Of a stretch of 64,000 nucleotides of DNA, positions 17,090 through 33,510 are shown in pieces. The notes below the pieces were generated by a model. It made no database searches, was not told the DNA's origin, and saw nothing but the letters and a program-made list of their open reading frames with translations. Each line of letters begins with the position of its first letter. The stretch's first letter is position 1. Origin of the DNA: Microbotryum violaceum (Eukaryota); the NCBI GenBank assembly GCA_001244265.2, contig CDLV01000008.1, positions 124,001-188,000 on the forward strand, given 5' to 3'. Made by a program: the position numbers and the translations under genes.

Positions 17090-18814
17090 GATGCTTTCTC
17101 GAGAGGTGCTGCTCTTCTCACCTACACGTGAGGGTATTCCTTCCTCGGATGACGCGTTCAGTGCTCAGGATCTTGTTGCGGGTCAGTCGATCCCTCCTCC
17201 CCGCTCGCGTCACCAGACCACAGTCTCGGTGTCAGCTCCAAATCCCCTCAGCCATACGTACTGACAAAGGCCATCTACCCATCTCTCCTCGTCCTCCAAA
17301 ACAGCCCAAGATGCGCTCGAAGCCGAAGCACGCGACACGATCCCGTTCGCTTTCACCGAATGCACCTACGAGATGGGCTACATCAAGCAACCCCTGTACG
17401 CGTGTCTGACCTGCCTCAACCACCGCGCCGTCTGCGCCGCGTGCTCCGTCTCGTGCCACGGTGAACATCATCTCGTCGAACTCTTCAACCGAAGGCATTT
17501 TCGTTGCGATTGTGGCACGGAGGCGATGGGAGCGGGGAGCGTGTGCGAGGTGACGAATCGCAAGGATGCACCGAAGAATAACGAAAATCGCTACGACAAA
17601 AATTTCCTCGGCAAATTCTGCGTTTGTGGAAAGGACTATGACCCCCACACCGAGACGTGAGTGGTCCGTATAAAGAACAAAGTTCTAATGTTTTGAAACT
17701 GACTTGTCGATGTTTGATTACACTACAGCGACTCAATGTACCAATGCCTCATCTGCGAAGACTGGCTTCACCACGCCTGTCTCATCGGATCCCACGTCGA
17801 TTCGGCCGACTCACTACTCGCGACCGACGACTTCGACCATGTCCTTTGCGATACATGCGTCCGTCACGATTACAAGGGCGTCAGGACCAAGCTGCTGGAT
17901 CGCTATGCTGGAATCGAAGGGAGCGGGGTCATGCTGCTCGATATGAAGACCAAAGCGATCATCGGGAGGGCCGCACTCGATGATGGGGACGAGAACGAGA
18001 ACGAGAACGAAGGGCAAGGTCGTAATAAACCCGACGTGAATGAAGAAGGAGACCTGTCGGAAGCCAAGCCCCACGCTTCGAGCGGCGATGCCACGGATCA
18101 AGACCGACCAACCAAGCGAGCTCGACTTGACGAACTAACGGCCAAGCCGGAAGCCTCCTCCTCATCTTCTTCAGCGCAACATGATATCATAAAACGAGAT
18201 ACTGTCACAGACCTGCCTACAAAAGCTTGCAAAGCACCCTTACGACCCAGCCCATCAGATGTGTCCCCTCTCAAGCGACTCGAGCTCGGCGGTGGCAAGC
18301 TGAACGTCTTTTTCGAGAAAGGATGGAGGATGAGGTGGTGTCAATGCCAAGAGGTACGCCTCTTCTTCTCGTCGGAGATGAATACCAGTGTCTCCGAAGA
18401 TCGCATTCATCCAATACTCAGCTGACGTTTATTCGGCAAATTTAAGCAGTGTTCACCTCTCTTTACCGACTTTCCATACTTTCTGGAAGAAGAAGAATCG
18501 TATGAACCACCGGACGATCCTGATGCTCGTGAGTTATTACCATTCGAAAGACTACACAGGCACCTTGCTGATGTCTTTCGAATCGTTCACTCGCAGACAA
18601 ATCGACACATGAACTCGGGATGGCCGCACTCTCACGCATGCCCCGCGAGCAAGCGATCGAAGGGGCAATTGCATTCCAGGGTCTTTCGGAGCGGCTCAAA
18701 AATTACCTACGGCCTTACTCCGAGTCGGGTGCAACGGTCACGAAGGAGTTAATTGATGAGTTCTTTGCAAAGGAGCGGGAAGTATTGTTGGAGCAGATGC
18801 AGCAGAATCGGTAA
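17090..18814 (+). CDS. UBR7: UBR-box plus PHD-finger protein, UBR7/Mlo2-like
   Basis: 'CTYEMGYIKQPLYACLTC...CAACSVSCHGEHHLVELFNRRHFRCDCG' (UBR box); 'YDKNFLGKFCVCGKDYDP...MYQCLICEDWLHHAC' (PHD); C-terminal 'MPREQAIEG...VTKELIDEFF'. Confidence 0.92.
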
Positions 18815-19279
18815 GGCGGTGATCTTAGGTGGAGGTGGCGACAGGCGACGACAGGCGACGACAAGTCGGACATTGCAGTAGGGCGGTGTAGGAACGGGCC
18901 GTTAAGGGATCGCTCTTCTCGGTATGAAATACACGATGCGTTTCCACCTCGGGCATAAGCTCGAAACCCCCCACTCTGTGGAGGGGCTTGTACCTTATCC
19001 GCGCGTTTGGCTGAGTTGCCTATCGAAGTTTGGCCCAGAAAAGTACCACCTTGCAGTAGCATGGCAGATAAAATCAACCTATACAATCGTTGCAATAGGG
19101 TTACTCTTATGCTGACGCCTGTCATGGGCACACCTCGTCGGTCTCCATCGATTGAGTTCAGATAGTCGCCCTTACGATCAGCTTCGAGGGCAAAGCCAAC
19201 GACATCAAGGGTCCATCACTCAGCCAACACAACGCCCGAAGTGTCTACCCGTCGCTCTCGGGCTGCTCACTGGAGATCA

Positions 19280-19915
19280 CAATTACCTCAAGAAGGTCGA
19301 GTTGACCCGATTGAGTTACGCAAGAAGCACAGACTCCTCTTGGTCGACAAATTTGGCGAGGACATTGTCCCCTAGCCGGTGCAAATCGAAGCTCGAGCGG
19401 AACTTTTTCAGCTCGAGCGGTTCAAGACTCGAAATCAGTATGACGCTGTGTTCGTTATTGCTCCAACGGGTTCAGGGAAAAGCTTGATATTCCAAGCCAT
19501 GTATTTGGGTTACGGACGCCGGGCTGTGACCATAGTTGTCAGTCCTCTGACTGCGCTGAGCCAACATCAGGTAGGTTTCATTCGGTTGGCCGTTGAGGCG
19601 ACGCCGGTGCTGAGTCCCACGGTCTTGATACCTTTACAGGCCGACAATCTCAATCAAGAGCGAAAGAAAGCGGCTGTCATATGCAAGAAAACATGGGGTG
19701 ACGGAAAGCAGTAACAGCAGTTGAGCGATCCCTCCCATACTGTCTCATCCATCTTCATCGTACGCGTACATTCAATCCGCCGCAGGTTTTTGCATGCTCA
19801 CAACCCCCGTACTGATATCTTGCTACTGAAAATCTCCGACAGTCTCCAGACATGCACAATGGAGACAAGCGCTGGGCTGAGCTGATATCGAAGGACTCGT
19901 TCCGAGAACGAGTTA
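19280..19915 (+). pseudogene. RecQ-like superfamily 2 helicase N-terminal fragment
   Basis: Q-motif region 'VP*PVQIEA' with an in-frame TAG at 19373; Walker A 'VFVIAPTGSGKSLIFQ'; motif Ia 'VTIVVSPLTALSQHQ'; intron 19571-19639; 'SPDM...RWAELISKDSFRERV'. Truncated before the DExH motif. Confidence 0.8.
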
Positions 19916-20665
19916 TAAGAGGCCTTGCCGCGTTCTTGTATACTGATCTGACATGCTGGAGTGTTACCCACCTGGTTGGGGTTGGCAATCCAATTATCGA
20001 TTCGGCCTCGTGCGTCTGGGCCATCTTCGCGGGCGAGTTGTATGATGAGATCAAGTACATGTTTGAGCTGAGTCCAATTACTGTTGAAGATCTTTGTCCT
20101 ATGATTGTGAACACCATCGTGTTGTGTTGATGGGCTGAAATACCACGAGAGGTATTGACATAGCGAGAGCTTATGAAGCCGAAACCGAGCGAATAGATCC
20201 GCCTGACGGCGGCGATCCTGGCGAGTCGTCGAGTCATAGCGTCTGCGGTTGCGCGTCATTCTGAGATAAGCGCGGTGTTCCACCGAGAACAAGCGAAGAG
20301 CATAGTACCGAGAAGACGAGTGATGCGGAATGGAACGGGAGAGAAACCGATGCGCACACGCCGAAGTACGTAGTGCGCAAGCCGGCGGCTGCAGCAGCGT
20401 GCTGCCGCTCGACTCGGGACCAAATTGACCAAATTTACACATTTCAGATCATTATTTGCCTACAGATGGGGTATCCTCTTGCCGTTCGGCACATGCCATT
20501 TTTTCTAGTAGAAGATCAATACCCTAGCTGCGTTCTGGATAATTGTAAGTACTTGCCACGCTACAGAGAACCACCCCAAAATGGCCCTGAAATTTCGGAG
20601 GGCAACTGGGCCAGGCGCGCCGATAAGTTCTAAGCCCCTCCACAGAGTGAGGGCTTAGTTGAGCT

Positions 20666-21056
20666 TACCTTGGGCAGACATAAAAAATACGCCTCAACAG
20701 GGGCGCGCGCAGCGCCCCCTCACGCGCCTTCCAAGTCACAGCCCCAGCAGAGTGGAGGGTTTCGAGCTTAAGCCCCAGCGGGGTGCAACCTTGCTACCCC
20801 AGGTAGCCGACTTGGCTCAGGTTACGCCCAACTCTCTGCTTCGAGTCGATTCTGTGTACACACAACACTCTCACAGCGCTATACTGATTAGGAAAGTGGG
20901 TAGTAGATGCACTCCTTCCTTCATATTTTCCTCGCATCTTTCGGATGTCGTCAATGTCACGTGTCCGAAGCGGTCGCGCGGGATTTCGGTCCCGAGATCG
21001 AAGGGGGCGCTGCGCGCGCCCCTGTTGAGGCGTATTTTTTATGTCTGCCCGAGGCG
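20666..21056. mobile_element. MITE-like unit with 49-bp perfect inverted repeats, nested at the right end of the larger element
   Basis: 20672-20720 (GGGCAGACATAAAAAATACGCCTCAACAGGGGCGCGCGCAGCGCCCCCT) is the exact reverse complement of 21002-21050. The match extends outward a few more bp with mismatches. Confidence 0.85.
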
Positions 21057-21370
21057 CGCGTTTCACATCATCAAGACTCCGCCGGGAATCAACCCCCGTG
21101 CGGCACCGGCGAGACGGCTCGACTGACCTCCTTTCGGAAGGCGATCCCCCCGAGACTAGAACCCCTGTTCGTATGGTCGGTACCAGACTTTCTTGACTCT
21201 GCCTCAACGTACGCTACTCTACGGCTTCTACGAAATTTATCACCCTTCGGTCTGGATGAAGATTCGGTTCTGGCGCATTGCGACAAGGCTCGAGAAGACA
21301 AGTCAACGCTGTTGAAGATGATGACGGTCAGTCTGCACGCAGAGCCTAGCGGTGCAAAGATTTGCACGAA

Positions 21371-21432
21371 ATATGATGTATGATATGTGGTGTATGGTGT
21401 ATGATATATGTTATATGGTATCTGATATGGTG
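21371..21432. repeat. Degenerate TATG(A/G)T(A/G)-type simple repeat
   Basis: Sequence atatgatgtatgatatgtggtgtatggtgtatgatatatgttatatggtatctgatatggtg. Confidence 0.7.
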
Positions 21433-21904
21433 GTCCAGGGAATCTAGCGTTTGTTAGATTTTCACAGTCTTCCGAACCGCCGGCCGAGGGGTTCTGGGTT
21501 CGAAACGGTCGTCCGCACGGTGGGCGCAGCAGCCCGAAACATCCTGTGGGGGGCGCGCCGCGCCGCTTCTAGTGCCATGCACGGGGTTATGGGTTCGTTC
21601 AAATAAAAGACAGGAACGTACGTGCACCCTTCTTCTGGGTGGCGGCCGAGAAGCTTGACATTATTATTCTGGCCGCGAGAGTCATGCAGCGATCATTATG
21701 CCGGCGATCCTCAGCGACATGTCTTGGCCGCGCCCGGTACCACCCCTCGTCGACGATACATCCGAGTCCTTTGTTCTCCCACTTCCTCCCTCCATCCCTT
21801 TCCTTTCCTTTCATTTTCTTTCTTTTCCTTCACCGCGTACTCTTTCTGTATCTCTCCACATAAGGAAGCAAGGGACTCGTCGATCCGATCGCACTCGACT
21901 GGCG

Positions 21905-24900
21905 ATGAAATTCTCGAACTCGATCATTGCTTGCGCCCTTCTCGCTTCCGGATGGGCCGACCTCGCACGGACCCACGGCGTCGACGCCGGCGGTGGTAGC
22001 ATCGGGTGAGTTCTTTCGCTCGACTCGGAACTCTGCGCCCTCTTGAGACCGAGCCCCGAACGCGTCATGATTGCTCACTCCTACTTCTCACACTCTTTTT
22101 ATGTTTTAACAGGGTTTCTCTCCCACCGACGACCCCCTCCGATCCCAGCTGCACCGGTTCAAACGAATGGTTCTCTCCCTACCGGTCGACGTTTGAAGCG
22201 CACGAGCGAGGCGAGAACCTTGATCAACTTAAACAGCCCGGCTCGATCGACGACTCGGAGTACCTGCTCAACCCCAATTTCAGCATCAACAATTGTCAAA
22301 CAACACGGTACTACTACTTGGACATTCACGAGACGCGTGCGGCACCGGATGGGTTCGAGAGGGAGATGTTCTTGTTCAATGGCCGAATCAATGGACCCCT
22401 CATCGAGGCGAACCAAGGTTAGCCTTCTTCGTCGCTTTAGGGACCCGCTCTCATCTCTAATCGTGCAGCTTGCCGACTCTTTATCACAATCTTGTCGTCT
22501 CCCAGGTGACACCATCGTCGTTTACGTTCACAACTACCTCGACATCGGCACGACGGTACACTGGCATGGCCTCGCGCAGAACGGCAGCGGTTGGGCCGAT
22601 GGTCCGCTCGGTAAGTCCCTTCGACCATACCTCTTTCCCCCGTACAAGACTTTACATTCTCTGATGGCTTTCCTTCCGCCTCACCACAGGTGTCACTCAG
22701 TGCCCCATCCCACCCGGAACGACATTCATCTACAAGTACACGCTCAGCCGATTTGACCAGTGCGGAACATATTGTACGTTGCAACAGTTCGGTGTGTAGA
22801 TCCCTTCGTAATGTGGGACTCATTCGGTGCACATCTTCACGTACCAACGTACAGGGTACCATGCCCATCGATTGGCTCACTACAGTGATGGACTTGTTGC
22901 TCCTTTGGTCATCCACTGCCCCAATGACCCACTCAAACGAGGTGACCTGTACGACATCGACCAAGTCGTCGTCGTCCGCGACCACTACCACCCCTTGTCG
23001 ACGCGAATCATCAGCGCCCTCCTCGTCAACGGTAGCTTCCAAGGCTCCTCCGCGACACCTTCTCCGAATGCGGGTCTGATCAACGGTCGTGGTCGCTACA
23101 ACTGTTCTTTCGCCCCCGAAGGCTCGGTCTGCACCGACGATGCCCCCCTCACCGAGTTCGAATTCCCCAAAGGTTCTCGCGTTCGTCTGCGCCTCATCAA
23201 CCCTTCGGCCCATGCCCAGTTCTTGGTCTCTGTCGACGAGCATCCTCTCAACGTCGTTGAAGCCGATGACACGCCCGTGTGGCAGACGACGGTCCATCGT
23301 ATTCCCATCAACGTAGGTCAACGCTATTCGGCCATTCTTAATACTGCCGATAACAACGAGGGTGATTCATTCTGGATGCGAGCCGACATCAACACGTAAG
23401 TACCGCCTGTGATCCAGCGGGGTGACATTCGTTCCTTCGAGACTGATCAATCATAAATCGGAACGGTTCTCACAGGGCATGCTTTGGCGCCAACTTCACT
23501 GACCTAAACCCCGAAGTCAAAGCGATTATTCGAATCGGGCCAGCGTCATCGTCACCGTCATCGTCAGTGTCATCGTCAGCGTCATCGGAAAACGGGTCGA
23601 ACCCTCCATCGCAAGGCGCTTCCAACGGCTCGAGCGATTCTTCAGGTGACCACTCTAGTAGTGGTAACCCGTCCGATCTTCAACAGTCTTCGAACAACAA
23701 TGGTACGGGCGGTGATGGCACCTCGAATAGTGGTGGCGATGGATCAACTGACAACTCTTGGAACTCGACCGGTGACGGATCCGACCGATTCCACGGCGGT
23801 GATACAGGTACCTCAGGAGATGCACCTGACGGATCTGATCAGTCCGACAACTCTGGTGACGGCAACGCTTCTGGTGATGGCCGAGGTGACTGGGGCAATC
23901 AGGAGGATTCGGACGGTTCGGGCGACTCGGGTGATCAGCAGGGGTCACAGAGGGGTTCTCGCTGGAAGAGGGCAGCGGGCTTACGCAAAAGGAACGGAAA
24001 CAACAACGACAACAACGACAACAACGACAACAACGACAACAACGACAGCAACGACAACAACGACAACAACGACAACAATGACAACAACAACTCTGGATCC
24101 AACACTAACACGAATCAAAACCTTCCCACCTCTACCGATTGGTCCGACGCCGTCAACGGAAGCTGCCATGACCTTGCCGAAAGTGAGTGCCACCAGGCCC
24201 CGTGCATCCCTTTTCGGTGATGAACCCTTTTGACTAATCACATCCTTTCCATTTTAATGATCAGGTACCCTCGTTCCTCGCGTGCCTTTCAACCCACCTG
24301 GGGCCAGCATCAGCCACGAGTTCAGAGCGACGATCCTCACCACCCCATCCGGCGCCTTCGGTTTCGCCGCCAACAACGTCAGTTTCGAGTCCTTCGTCGA
24401 CGACCCCTTCTTGTTCCGCGTCAACCGAGGCGACGACATCCCCCTCGGACTTTCGGCCTCGATCGTTCTCGACGACAAGTCTCTCGCTCACGACATCGTC
24501 ATCAACAATGCCAACCCCATCGATCATCCTTTCCATTTGCATGGCGTGCAGATGCATCTCATCGCGAGGGGAGCGGGATCGGTCAGTGCAGACAACATCT
24601 CGTCCGTCGCGCTCAATCTCAACAACCCGATTCGAAGGGACACGATCTCGGTCACTGGCAATACGTTTGCAATCGTTCGCGTTGTTGCTGATAATGCTGG
24701 AGTCTGGGCTATCCACTGTCACATTCTTCCCGTAAGTCTCTTGTGCACATCGGAGGTCTCCATGGACCGAGCTGACAGTATCGTCTTTGTCCCGAACAGC
24801 ACCAAGTCACCGGTCTGATGGGTGTGGTCGTGATACGCCCCGACTTGATTCGCAAGATGGAGATCCCCCAACACGCCCGAGACGTGAGTATGCCTGACCA

Positions 24901-32099: not shown

Positions 32100-33510
32100 T
32101 GTGGATAAATTCCTGTCATTTGTATATGGTCATATGGGTTGTCTCGTCCTTCATCTGATTATTGTTCCTATTTATGGTACTTGATGTTGAGCCCATAAGG
32201 CGAGTCATGAACGCCTCTGGGACTTCAATATCCCTACTTTACTATTCTCTAATCTCTCCCTTTATTAGCTTTACGCTTCACTTTCTAGCCTTCCGCGAGT
32301 CTGTCCCTTCGTCTCTGGCCACTCTGTTCTCGTCCCTGTTCATTGGACTGAGTCGTGGTCATCATCAGATTCCACTTGAGAACATTTCTGCGACAGGTTA
32401 TGAGCCTTTCAAGCTACAAGTCGCTCCGTAGGAAGCGATGGATACGACGTCCTACAAGACCTCTCCACCACTCCAAACGCGTACGAGGAATGGTCGATTT
32501 GGATATCGAACAATCTTCGTACGCGTTTGGAGTGTTGGAGAGATAGATCTTGTAGGACGTCGTATCCATCGCTTCCTCCGGAGCGACTTGTAGCTTGAAA
32601 GGCTCATAACCTGTCGCAGAAATGTTCTCAGCAACGGATACGACGGCCTATAAGATCTATCTCTCCAACACTCCAAACGCGTACAGGGAATGGTCGATCT
32701 GGGTATCGAACAATCTTCGCCTCGATGATCTCTTGGATGTCACCACATTGGGCATTCCAGCTGTTTTAGAGATTCGCAAAGCCGGCCTGCTCACGCCCCC
32801 GGCTACTTCGCAACCGTCAACATCTGGCGGCGGTGAAGATACCTCCACCTCCGCGCCAGCCGCGCCTACTCTTTCAGCCAAGGACGCCGAGAAGCTTCGC
32901 CTCCATGCTCTTGTGCTCAAATCCAAGGATGCCAAAGCATGGAGGCTCATCAAGAATTATCTTCACCGAAATCAGATGGCCATCATCAAGAATTGTACCT
33001 CTGCTTTTGCTATGTGGCAAGCATTGTACATTCACCACTCAACTCGTTTCATGCAACTCGTCCCCGTCATCTTCCGAAGCACCTTCTCTCGACCTGGCAA
33101 CTTTAGGTCGTTCGTCCTCAACTCCACCAACGCTGTTGAAGAAGTACGGAACCTGGGGGTTGTCCTACCAGGCTTTGCGCTTGCCGCCTTGCTCATCCAC
33201 TCCCTTCCACCCGAGTGGGAGAGTATCGCAAGCAGCCCGACTTCTGAAGTCACTCTCATTACCGACTTCCAACATTTCGTTGCACTTTATGCTCAAGTCG
33301 ACCGGCGATTGACAACTTCGACCGCTTCGGCACCGAACCCATTGCGGAATTTGAGCGCATGCATTCTGAGGGCAAAGCTATGGTGGGGGCGGAACGTCGT
33401 GATCACTCCAAGCTGTTCTGCAAGAATTGCAACGCTCAGGGTCATAGTACCAAGTGGTCTGGCTGTCCCTCCAAGTCTAATTGGGAGTCTGATGGATTCA
33501 AAGCCATGAT
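32100..33510 (+). mobile_element. Ty1/Copia LTR retrotransposon relic (5' LTR end, PBS, gag; no pol in view)
   Basis: LTR end ...CA at 32395 followed directly by GGTTATGAGCC (32396-32406), the Ty5/copia-type half-tRNAiMet PBS. Gag ORF 32622-33509 ('YREWSIWV...KDAKAWRLIKNYL...CTSAFAMWQAL...LIHSLPPEWESI'). Frameshifted zinc knuckle CKNCNAQGHSTKWSGC at ~33419. The left LTR boundary is a guess. Confidence 0.85.
32377..32630. repeat. Long inverted repeat (arms ~110 bp, loop ~30 nt) followed by a third, direct copy
   Basis: 32377-32486 is the near-perfect reverse complement of 32517-32630. 32636-32719 is a direct copy of ~32440-32519. Confidence 0.95.

Follow-up and report, generated by a model that had tools for sequence, protein, structure and literature searches.

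The 2.1-kb stretch at positions 18937 to 21064 of the window, by which we mean the whole 64-kb stretch of DNA that was analyzed, consists of two nested transposon relics, with one (A) lying within an end of the other (B). Overall, the locus is probably best explained as a gutted, helicase-carrying AcademH-like element (A) that resides inside a small MITE-like element (B). An earlier reading, made from the letters of the sequence, had described a DNA-transposon relic at this site, and the presence of inverted repeats, target duplications, and a multicopy signal bears this out. Both insertions occupy intergenic space in a gene-dense, interstitial region of a Microbotryum genome. This space starts 130 nt downstream of a UBR-box gene and is upstream of a multicopper-oxidase gene. 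Such repeat content is ordinary in an anther-smut fungus, and the relics represent a further member of a known transposon type and leave knowledge of transposition itself unchanged. Their main value is for annotation, and public Microbotryum proteomes enter A-family fragments as ordinary proteins or hypothetical ones, and some of them as "DNA 3'-5' helicase".

The sequence features listed in the earlier reading are all present, either where they had been placed or within ~20 nt. Specifically, the termini CACCTCGGGCA (18945–18955) and TGCCCGAGGCG (21046–21056) are inverted copies of each other (10 of 11 nt), and are flanked by the 8-bp target duplication copies TGCGTTTC (18937–18944) and CGCGTTTC (21057–21064), which agree at 7 of 8 positions and differ by a single CpG transition. 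That reading took these termini and flanks as the ends of one ~2.1-kb helicase element, and missed a 53-nt inverted repeat of 98% identity that, in the sequence as it stands, pairs nucleotides 20668 to 20720 with nucleotides 21002 to 21054. When nucleotides 18956 to 20676 (A plus one copy of its target duplication) are deleted by coordinates, the arms of B pair at 54 of 55 positions. Because of this 53-nt inverted repeat, the outer termini and the long inverted repeats quoted in that reading are assigned to different elements: the former, with the 8-bp duplication, to B, and the latter to A, whose ends are at 18956 and 20667. The case also illustrates that termini read by eye can be misassigned when one element has inserted into another.

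Element B comprises nucleotides 18945 to 18955, which are the first 11 nt of its left terminal inverted repeat and were severed from the rest by the insertion of A, together with nucleotides 20677 to 21056, where its arms are found at 20668 to 20720 and at 21002 to 21054/56. It resembles MITEs and other short nonautonomous elements in being short (~390 bp), in having near-perfect 55-nt terminal inverted repeats and a short target duplication, in lacking credible coding capacity (no Pfam match above the cut-off), and in giving a multicopy signal in sequencing runs. Variant copies of B are present in all four runs examined, and in run X1 the contig depth over B is 340 to 354 versus 37 to 40 in the flanks, where these values are sums over contigs and not copy numbers. 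The terminal sequences of B are unrelated to those of A, and we identified no autonomous partner for B. An 8-bp duplication is compatible with hAT, P, or Zisupton-type elements. In the Microbotryum lychnidis-dioicae annotation report (PMC4469406), TIR elements are given with 438 copies and MITEs with 39.

Element A spans 1,712 bp (18956–20667) and has the ends TAAGCTC...GAGCTTA. The left copy of its 9-bp target duplication, CCTCGGGCA (18947–18955), corresponds to positions 3 to 11 of the B repeat and matches the right copy, CCTTGGGCA (20668–20676), in direct orientation at 8 of 9 positions. By a simple binomial estimate, a match of at least 8 of 9 at a fixed place has a chance of ~1.4e-4. Judged against the left copy and the right arm of B, a CpG has undergone a C-to-T change at 20671. 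Indeed, all three mismatches at the locus (in the two duplications and at position 2 of the B repeat) are CpG transitions, a form of decay that fits the frequent CpG-site transitions described for TE copies of M. lychnidis-dioicae (PMC4469406). The 9-bp length is read from two events at this one locus, one of which includes a mismatch, and the true length may be 10 bp.

The inverted alignment of nucleotides ~18956 to 19101 with ~20521 to 20667 proposed in the earlier reading is real, and a gapped alignment includes every sequence block that had been quoted. In a blastn comparison of a 2.4-kb query with the 64-kb window, nucleotides 18956 to 19031 align with 20667 to 20590 at 78% identity over 78 nt (E 2e-11), and gapped local alignment weakly lengthens these repeats to ~19114 and 20507, giving imperfect repeats of ~80 to 150 nt. 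The left terminal inverted repeat (18956–19113, plus strand) is strong to ~19035 and weak to ~19113, and the right one (20585–20667, minus strand) pairs weakly inward to ~20507. These repeats had been described as long and eroded. They are long and imperfect, but erosion is doubtful: each arm has matches of at least 90% identity in other copies, so the imperfect pairing seems characteristic of the family.

Further genomic copies had been expected, and were found both in contigs from sequencing runs and in Microbotryum proteomes. The copies in contigs were judged from four runs (X1, X9, X10, and X19) among the 21 listed. Contigs of other copies follow the window to nucleotide 20667 and then diverge into unlike sequence, and others break away from A at 19113/19115. 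In run X1, contig depths summed over contigs, which are not copy numbers, are 779 for the bin spanning 19003 to 19169 and 1574 for that spanning 20506 to 20672, compared to 37 to 40 in the flanks. Within the 64-kb window, neither blastn nor tblastn with 16 family proteins (P0001–P0016) detected further copies, and a metagenome pattern scan with the terminal motif of A gave 0 matches. The left junction is spanned by contigs in X1, X9, and X19, and contigs that start within the right arm of B reach the right flank in X1, X9, and X10. A structural variant of the locus is present in run X10. No empty site, which the earlier reading had suggested seeking in related strains, was seen in the four runs; in their flanks, these runs differ hardly at all from the window and are thus uninformative on relatives.

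Inside A, a RecQ-like helicase fragment and a fragment of a DUF6589-type gene meet head-on, as the earlier reading had recognized, and both genes lack their 3' parts at one internal-deletion junction (19915–19916). Helicase homology stops at 19914, and other copies have contigs that match from 19916 onward to the right; in X1 and X9, what precedes the match is unlike the window. The remnant of the RecQ-like SF2 helicase gene (19115–19914, plus strand), whose extent was established by tblastn of family proteins P0001 to P0005, has no start codon and is truncated before the DEAx box. Three in-frame stops are found at 19163–19165, 19373–19375, and 19712–19714. The first two are not common to other copies, which read G at 19163 and C and G at 19373/19374; at 19712–19714 no differing letters are listed in other copies, yet the family proteins read through this position. 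An intron lies at 19571–19639, and its GT..AG joint is seen in run X19.

Several comparisons bear on the identity of this fragment and show a core that resembles RecQ. Nucleotides 19166 to 19714 match the Pfam family DEAD (E 2.2e-6, 28 bits versus a cut-off of 26), and five Microbotryum proteins among 1,397 candidates are 60 to 74% identical to the helicase. One of these family proteins, P0004, runs on into a weak Helicase_C match (19.9 bits, below the cut-off of 23.5), and gave no match to RecQ_Zn_bind, where all available family members are partial. The best PDB sequence match of the helicase is RecQ4 (E 4e-4), and its structural neighbors are RecQ-family models with TM values of 0.67 to 0.72.

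The opposing gene is represented by exon 1 (19981–20259, minus strand), which was delimited by tblastn of P0006 to P0016 and has 93 open codons beginning with an ATG at 20259–20257, and by leftover intron 1 sequence (19916–19980, minus strand) between this exon and the deletion junction. The peptide quoted in the earlier reading is contained in the minus-strand ORF 19798–20448. Nine Microbotryum proteins among 127 candidates share the N-terminus of this ORF. Pfam searches with the ORF alone, or with short family members, returned nothing, and DUF6589, which had been proposed beforehand, is visible only through longer members: the 811-aa protein P0015 (E 1.2e-60) and P0016 (E 3.7e-15). The domain is carried by 38 of 38 aligned relatives, in which three acidic residues are conserved among the non-gap rows (D261, 33 of 34; D416, 34 of 36; E661, 32 of 33).

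An AlphaFold model of P0015 (pLDDT 80.6) places these residues in a predicted beta1-beta2-beta3-alpha-beta4-alpha-beta5 core with an all-helical insert before the E helix, wherein D261 lies in strand 255–267, D416 just past strand 411–415, and E661 in helix 656–672. A comparison of this model by VIA-align gave the P element transposase as the best match (Z 9.9, 355 aligned), followed by Hermes (7.6), ISCth4 (7.3), Tn5 (6.4), RAG1 (6.1), and Transib (6.0), and each of the best 32 rows is a DDE transposase or RAG1. These fold matches are moderate, as a Z of 9.9 is only slightly above the background of 7 to 8 stated for this method, and a Foldseek search against the PDB gave no match at E ≤0.001, with Hermes best at 0.01. 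The predicted core and its three conserved acidic residues suggest that DUF6589 can be read as a family of DDE/RNase H-fold transposases. If so, an uncharacterized Pfam family would correspond to a transposase that travels with a RecQ-like helicase, and indeed the pairing of the two genes recurs in gene models P0006, P0007, P0011, P0014, and P0016, the last of which spans the DUF6589 gene and continues into antisense sequence of the 5' part of the helicase. A metagenome protein scan with a seven-sequence alignment yielded four contigs of 1.0 to 1.5 kb that offer no context.

Element A fits the AcademH lineage, because a 9-bp duplication, a helicase gene, a DDE gene, and inverted repeats occur together. 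AcademH was reportedly described as a lineage of the Academ superfamily by Kojima in 2020 (Mob DNA 11:15). Its duplications are 9 or 10 bp, and these together with a helicase partner are the hallmarks stated in PMC10045372. At this locus, a 9-bp duplication is found in two events only, CCTCGGGCA/CCTTGGGCA (8 of 9) and a perfect AGCCCCAGC pair described below; the helicase and transposase genes share one element both here and in P0016; and the A termini form inverted repeats (78% over 78 nt). The earlier reading had proposed a distinct family on the grounds that an 8-bp duplication is shorter than that of AcademH. Since A has the 9-bp duplication and the 8 bp belong to B, this conflict vanishes and the proposal falls. 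As in the AcademH lineage, the A family combines terminal inverted repeats, a DDE-type transposase gene, an SF2 helicase gene, a 9-bp (possibly 10-bp) duplication, and occurrence in Pucciniomycotina, whereas the A copy itself is a deletion derivative of 1.7 kb in which neither gene is intact. The likeness is drawn from published descriptions. Academ is not named for Microbotryum in the literature searched, where PMC12210899 mentions both words without describing the element there, and the A family may already be recorded in the repeat tables of Perlin 2015 and of Kojima 2020.

The link from DUF6589 to Academ is circumstantial, resting on co-distribution, the helicase partner, and duplication length. 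PHD-bearing AcademH elements form a sublineage in animals, and PHD is found in 14% of members of a mollusc DUF6589 cluster. Duplication lengths are 8 bp for P and hAT elements and 5 bp for Transib. DUF6589 relatives occur in Puccinia, Melampsora, and Mortierella, as well as in Mollusca and Cnidaria, a range that mirrors the one reported for Academ, which is most abundant in Pucciniomycotina and present in Mortierella (PMC5751038) and is expanded in bivalves (PMC10294476). It is unlikely that DUF6589 elements fall outside Academ and constitute a separate helicase-plus-DDE superfamily nearer to P or hAT. The P element, hAT (Hermes), and RAG1/Transib are the best structural matches of P0015, at sequence identities of 8 to 11%, and share with it an RNase H-like DDE core broken by a large helical insertion domain; they are not known to carry a helicase gene. 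Moreover, no Pfam family matched the Academ RNase H domains in 2017 (PMC5751038), their mapping to the newer DUF6589 is undocumented in the literature searched, and our search found neither a function paper on DUF6589/PF20231 nor one tying either to Academ. However, the 9-bp duplication of A differs from the 8 bp of P and hAT, and a helicase partner with 9- or 10-bp duplications is what is stated of AcademH.

Given an AcademH-like A nested in B, the following order of events would account for the locus. B, with its 55-nt terminal inverted repeats, would have been the first to insert, duplicating 8 bp of target, after which a member of the A family would have entered between positions 11 and 12 of the left repeat of B and duplicated 9 bp, with both insertions (at least two at the locus) proceeding by cut-and-paste. 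Autonomous members of the A family would carry two convergent genes, encoding the RecQ-like SF2 helicase and the DUF6589 DDE transposase, between long imperfect inverted repeats; DDE catalysis would make a 9-bp staggered target cut, and the helicase may have an accessory role. One internal deletion (19914/19916) would have removed the 3' parts of both genes from the A copy, whose helicase would additionally have lost its start and gained three stops. This copy is not autonomous, as 93 of ~800 transposase codons are left and the helicase has no start, contains three stops, and ends before DEAx. Because it encodes nothing, it could move only with a transposase that acts in trans and recognizes its ends.

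A second A-family insertion trace (20740–20779) is found inside B, where a 22-nt terminus (20749–20770) that is identical at 21 of 22 positions to the reverse complement of the A left end lies between perfect 9-bp repeats of AGCCCCAGC (20740–20748 and 20771–20779). Contigs from all four runs include other B copies from which exactly 31 nt are missing at this point, with 8 letters in common at the joint. Two independent events with 9-bp duplications lie within one 360-bp target, a single B copy. We consider it improbable that the A family represents an AcademH-like transposon that is still active in Microbotryum, favors B-type MITEs, and left the one-ended 22-nt terminus as an excision scar. 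The support for such activity is thin, and comes from a contig of a spliced helicase transcript from some copy at 90% identity or more, the structural variant in X10, and the two insertions in one B copy. If true, the scar would give an initial view of the way in which an Academ element aided by a helicase exits from DNA.

There is very little probability that nucleotides 18945 to 21056 form a single 2.1-kb element with 11-nt termini, an 8-bp duplication, and internal inverted repeats of its own. Its 11-nt ends are indeed inverted copies, and its 8-bp flanks agree at 7 of 8 positions. However, such an element leaves unaccounted for the 53-nt inverted repeat at 20668–21054, the exact continuation of that repeat by nucleotides 18945 to 18955 when A is taken out, and the direct 9-bp repeat that borders A. 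In addition, contigs of other copies depart at 20667, in the interior of the supposed element, and B-like sequence is present in contigs with no trace of an A terminus, which already points to separate genomic copies of the two elements.

RecQ-like helicase gene families are known at fungal chromosome ends, and the helicase alone shows no mobile-element signature, but an origin from a host or telomere-linked RecQ paralogue, with inverted repeats due to chance or local rearrangement and no transposon, was rejected as next to impossible, given that the fragment has inverted repeats on both sides together with a target duplication, adjoins a DDE-fold gene fragment in a pairing that recurs in five gene models, is multicopy in four of four runs, and lies in a gene-dense interstitial locus. 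Throughout the 64-kb window, there are only seven inverted-repeat pairs of at least 28 nt within 8 kb, and three of the seven are at the locus of A and B.

Two dead DNA transposons, one nested inside the other, make up this ~2.1-kb stretch. The outer one (B) is a MITE-like element of ~390 bp, comprising positions 18945-18955 and 20677-21056 and flanked by an 8-bp repeat in which 7 of 8 letters match. The inner one (A), of 1,712 bp (18956-20667), lies between the copies of a 9-bp duplication (8/9) built from the terminal repeat of B. The sequence-only reading had described a single ~2.1-kb, helicase-carrying AcademH-like transposon spanning 18937-21064. Its listed features (termini, flanks, inverted alignment and quoted blocks) are all in the sequence, and the identification as an AcademH-like element with a helicase, a DUF6589-type gene and an internal deletion largely stands. 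The boundaries do not, since the 11-nt termini CACCTCGGGCA (18945-18955) and TGCCCGAGGCG (21046-21056), along with the 8-bp target duplication TGCGTTTC (18937-18944) and CGCGTTTC (21057-21064), belong to B.

The inverted repeat of A aligns 18956-19031 with 20667-20590 at 78% identity over 78 nt (E 2e-11 when 2.4 kb is searched against the 64-kb window). A gapped alignment carries it weakly to ~19114 and 20507, and every previously quoted block falls inside. A repeat scan also identified a 53-nt, 98% inverted repeat (20668-20720 and 21002-21054; pair I2), absent from the sequence-only reading, whose left arm opens with CCTTGGGCA immediately after the right end of A (...GAGCTTA, 20667). These nine letters recur (8/9) as CCTCGGGCA immediately before the left end of A (TAAGCTC..., 18956). 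Indeed, when 18956-20676 is deleted by coordinates, the 11 nt at 18945-18955 extend the left arm of B exactly and the B arms match at 54 of 55 positions. The 9-mer on both sides of A and the restored B arms thus show that there are two elements, not one. Inverted pairs of at least 28 nt within 8 kb number seven in the whole window, three of them at this locus. By a simple binomial calculation, the chance of a match at a fixed place is ~1.4e-4 for at least 8/9 and ~5e-4 for at least 7/8. The duplication of A may be 10 bp long, because each copy has a letter A before it; with 9 bp the two ends are symmetrical. As the 8-bp flank is that of B, the length formerly assigned to the helicase element gives way to 9 bp, and with the corrected boundaries the reason to suspect a distinct family is gone. 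The three mismatches, found at position 2 of the B repeat and once in each of the two duplications, are all CpG transitions, in agreement with the frequent CpG-site transitions described for transposable element copies of Microbotryum lychnidis-dioicae (PMC4469406).

Contigs from four public sequencing runs (X1, X9, X10 and X19, of 21 listed) were aligned to positions 17500-22500, and further A- and B-like copies are present in all four. In X1, the summed contig depth, which is not a copy number and is used only as a sign of multiple copies, is 37-40 in the flanks, 779 and 1,574 in the two arms of A, 160-500 in the A interior and 340-354 in B. These values are a sign that A and B sequences are multi-copy, with A arms commoner than the A interior. 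Because many contigs match each A arm at 90% or more, the 78% arm-to-arm identity looks like a trait of the family and not the erosion of terminal inverted repeats proposed earlier. In 4/4 runs the flanks are near-identical, with pieces of ~160-1,530 nt showing 0-4 differences each. The left junction is spanned by contigs in X1, X9 and X19, and on the right side contigs in X1, X9 and X10 start inside the right arm of B and continue into the right flank. No empty site was seen in the four runs, which, with flanks so near to the window, are not informative relatives.

Two variant joints were also observed. A contig of single-copy depth (17.5) in X10 joins 18867 to 20094, skipping 1,226 nt that include 78 nt of flank, the left tip of B, the left arm of A and the helicase remnant, with the same right junction as the window; another strain or haplotype seems to carry this locus with a deletion. 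X1, X9 and X10 have contigs of single-copy depth in which 20784 and 21004 are linked on opposite strands, and other contigs depart at 21005, the inner edge of the right arm of B. The joint may reflect an inversion or a variant B interior.

A second A-type trace lies inside B. The 22 nt at 20749-20770 are identical at 21 positions to the reverse complement of the left terminus of A (pair I3) and are bracketed by perfect 9-bp repeats, AGCCCCAGC, at 20740-20748 and 20771-20779. Contigs of other B-like copies omit exactly 31 nt (22 + 9) there in 4/4 runs compared, with eight letters shared at the joint. Such a pattern marks an insertion that duplicated 9 bp of a B copy and was later mostly lost.

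On the plus strand of A, 19166-19714 matches Pfam DEAD (E 2.2e-6; 28 bits, cut-off 26), and by tblastn the homology spans 19115-19914. A search for longer proteins gave five matches among 1,397 candidates (60-74% identity), all from Microbotryum saponariae or M. silenes-dioicae. The remnant lacks a start codon, whereas run contigs of other copies have an ATG just left of 19115, and it carries in-frame stops at 19163-19165, 19373-19375 and 19712-19714. Other copies have different letters at the first two stops; at the third, no differing letters occur among the rows listed, and the family proteins nonetheless read on there. The remnant is cut at 19914, just short of the DEAx box present in relatives. 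In the longest relative, P0004 (495 aa), the sequence goes on to a Helicase_C match, a weak one (19.9 bits, cut-off 23.5). By sequence, the best matches of P0004 in the PDB are RecQ4 and an entry named "ATP-dependent DNA helicase" (E about 4e-4), and its structural neighbors in the Atlas are RecQ-family clusters (TM 0.67-0.72). A predicted intron, 19571-19639, corresponds to a GT..AG joint in X19, which we take to be an RNA run because three GT..AG joints also occur in the upstream gene. X19 additionally contains a CT..AC joint, 19182-19270, which on the minus strand reads as a GT..AG intron spanning the 5′ region of the helicase. This joint agrees with the splice in the gene models P0007 and P0016, which suggests that deletion derivatives are read through in antisense and that the transcripts are spliced.

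The minus-strand ORF, for which DUF6589-type relatives had been suggested, is the N-terminus of a second Microbotryum family (nine matches among 127 candidates) whose members P0015 (811 aa; E 1.2e-60) and P0016 (698 aa; E 3.7e-15) carry DUF6589. By tblastn homology, exon 1 comprises 93 codons, from the ATG at 20259 to 19981, followed by a left-over intron (19916-19980). In contigs of other copies, the match begins at 19916 and extends to the right, with unlike sequence before it. Given that helicase homology ends at 19914, the internal-deletion junction is 19914/19916, which bears out the deletion postulated previously. The gene model P0016 passes from the DUF6589 gene into helicase 5′ sequence in antisense, so convergent helicase and DUF6589 genes lie within one element in other copies too. 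At least 16 annotated M. saponariae and M. silenes-dioicae "proteins" (P0001-P0016) come from this transposon family as fragments or read-throughs, with P0014 (transposase N-terminus plus helicase) and P0016 being chimeras.

An exhaustive search with P0015 returned 480 cluster representatives at E ≤1e-3, 204 at ≤1e-10 and 55 at ≤1e-30. In an alignment of P0015 with 37 relatives, picked by length among 150 matches listed, DUF6589 is present in 38/38 sequences and three acidic positions are near-invariant among non-gap rows: D261 (33/34), D416 (34/36) and E661 (32/33). An AlphaFold model of P0015 (pLDDT 80.6, pTM 0.79) places D261 on a strand, D416 just past a strand and E661 on a helix after a large helical insert. 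Foldseek found no match to this model in the PDB at E ≤0.001, the best being Hermes at 0.01. The best VIA-align match listed is P element transposase (Z 9.9; 355 aligned, rmsd 6.5), and Hermes (7.6), ISCth4 (7.3), Tn5 (6.4), RAG1 (6.1) and Transib (6.0) also appear; the best 32 rows listed are all DDE transposases or RAG1. Because Z values of 7-8 are common background, assignment as a DDE transposase leans on the coherent structural list and the conserved triad, not on Z alone.

AcademH duplications are 9 or 10 bp and those of AcademX 3-4 bp, a difference tied to the helicase or nuclease that each encodes (PMC10045372). AcademH elements are described as low-copy in Basidiomycota, Ascomycota and Mucoromycota (PMC10799480). 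Fungal Academ elements peak in Pucciniomycotina and also occur in Mortierella; in 2017 Pfam had no match for Academ, whose fungal Repbase entries at the time were all from Puccinia graminis (PMC5751038). Academ has expanded in bivalves (PMC10294476). In a set of 10 proteins examined, the P0015 relatives with DUF6589 belong to Phenoliferia, Melampsora, Puccinia striiformis, P. graminis, Mortierella alpina and agarics. Cnidaria and Mollusca are represented as well among Atlas clusters, one of which has PHD in 14% of its members. A fits AcademH in its helicase, DDE gene, inverted repeats, 9-bp duplication and taxon range, and its transposase is a candidate member of the Academ clade. Across the literature searched, no paper names Academ in Microbotryum, and the family of A may already be listed in the supplements of Perlin 2015 and Kojima 2020.

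The upstream plus-strand gene encodes a UBR-box zinc finger (Pfam zf-UBR, E 6.5e-11), with its stop at 18812-18814 and GT..AG joints in X19 at 17657-17728, 18352-18447 and 18529-18596. Its transcript contig (region 17500-19073) extends as far as 19073, which makes 129 nt or more of the 3′ UTR transposon sequence (B tip and A left arm). This contig end may be a simple break at the repeat and not a poly(A) site. The nested transposons lie ~1 kb upstream of a plus-strand multicopper oxidase gene (22010-23399; Pfam Cu-oxidase_3 and Cu-oxidase). A second foldback-like sequence, at 32377-32719, is possibly a further MITE or foldback element, with 89-nt arms of 97% identity (32377-32465 and 32542-32630), an inner 38-nt pair and an extra 90-nt partial copy. 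At 21372-21427 there is a short degenerate TATGATG-type tandem repeat (direct repeat D2), and summed depth in the bin 21341-21507 is raised in the runs (192 versus 40 in X1).
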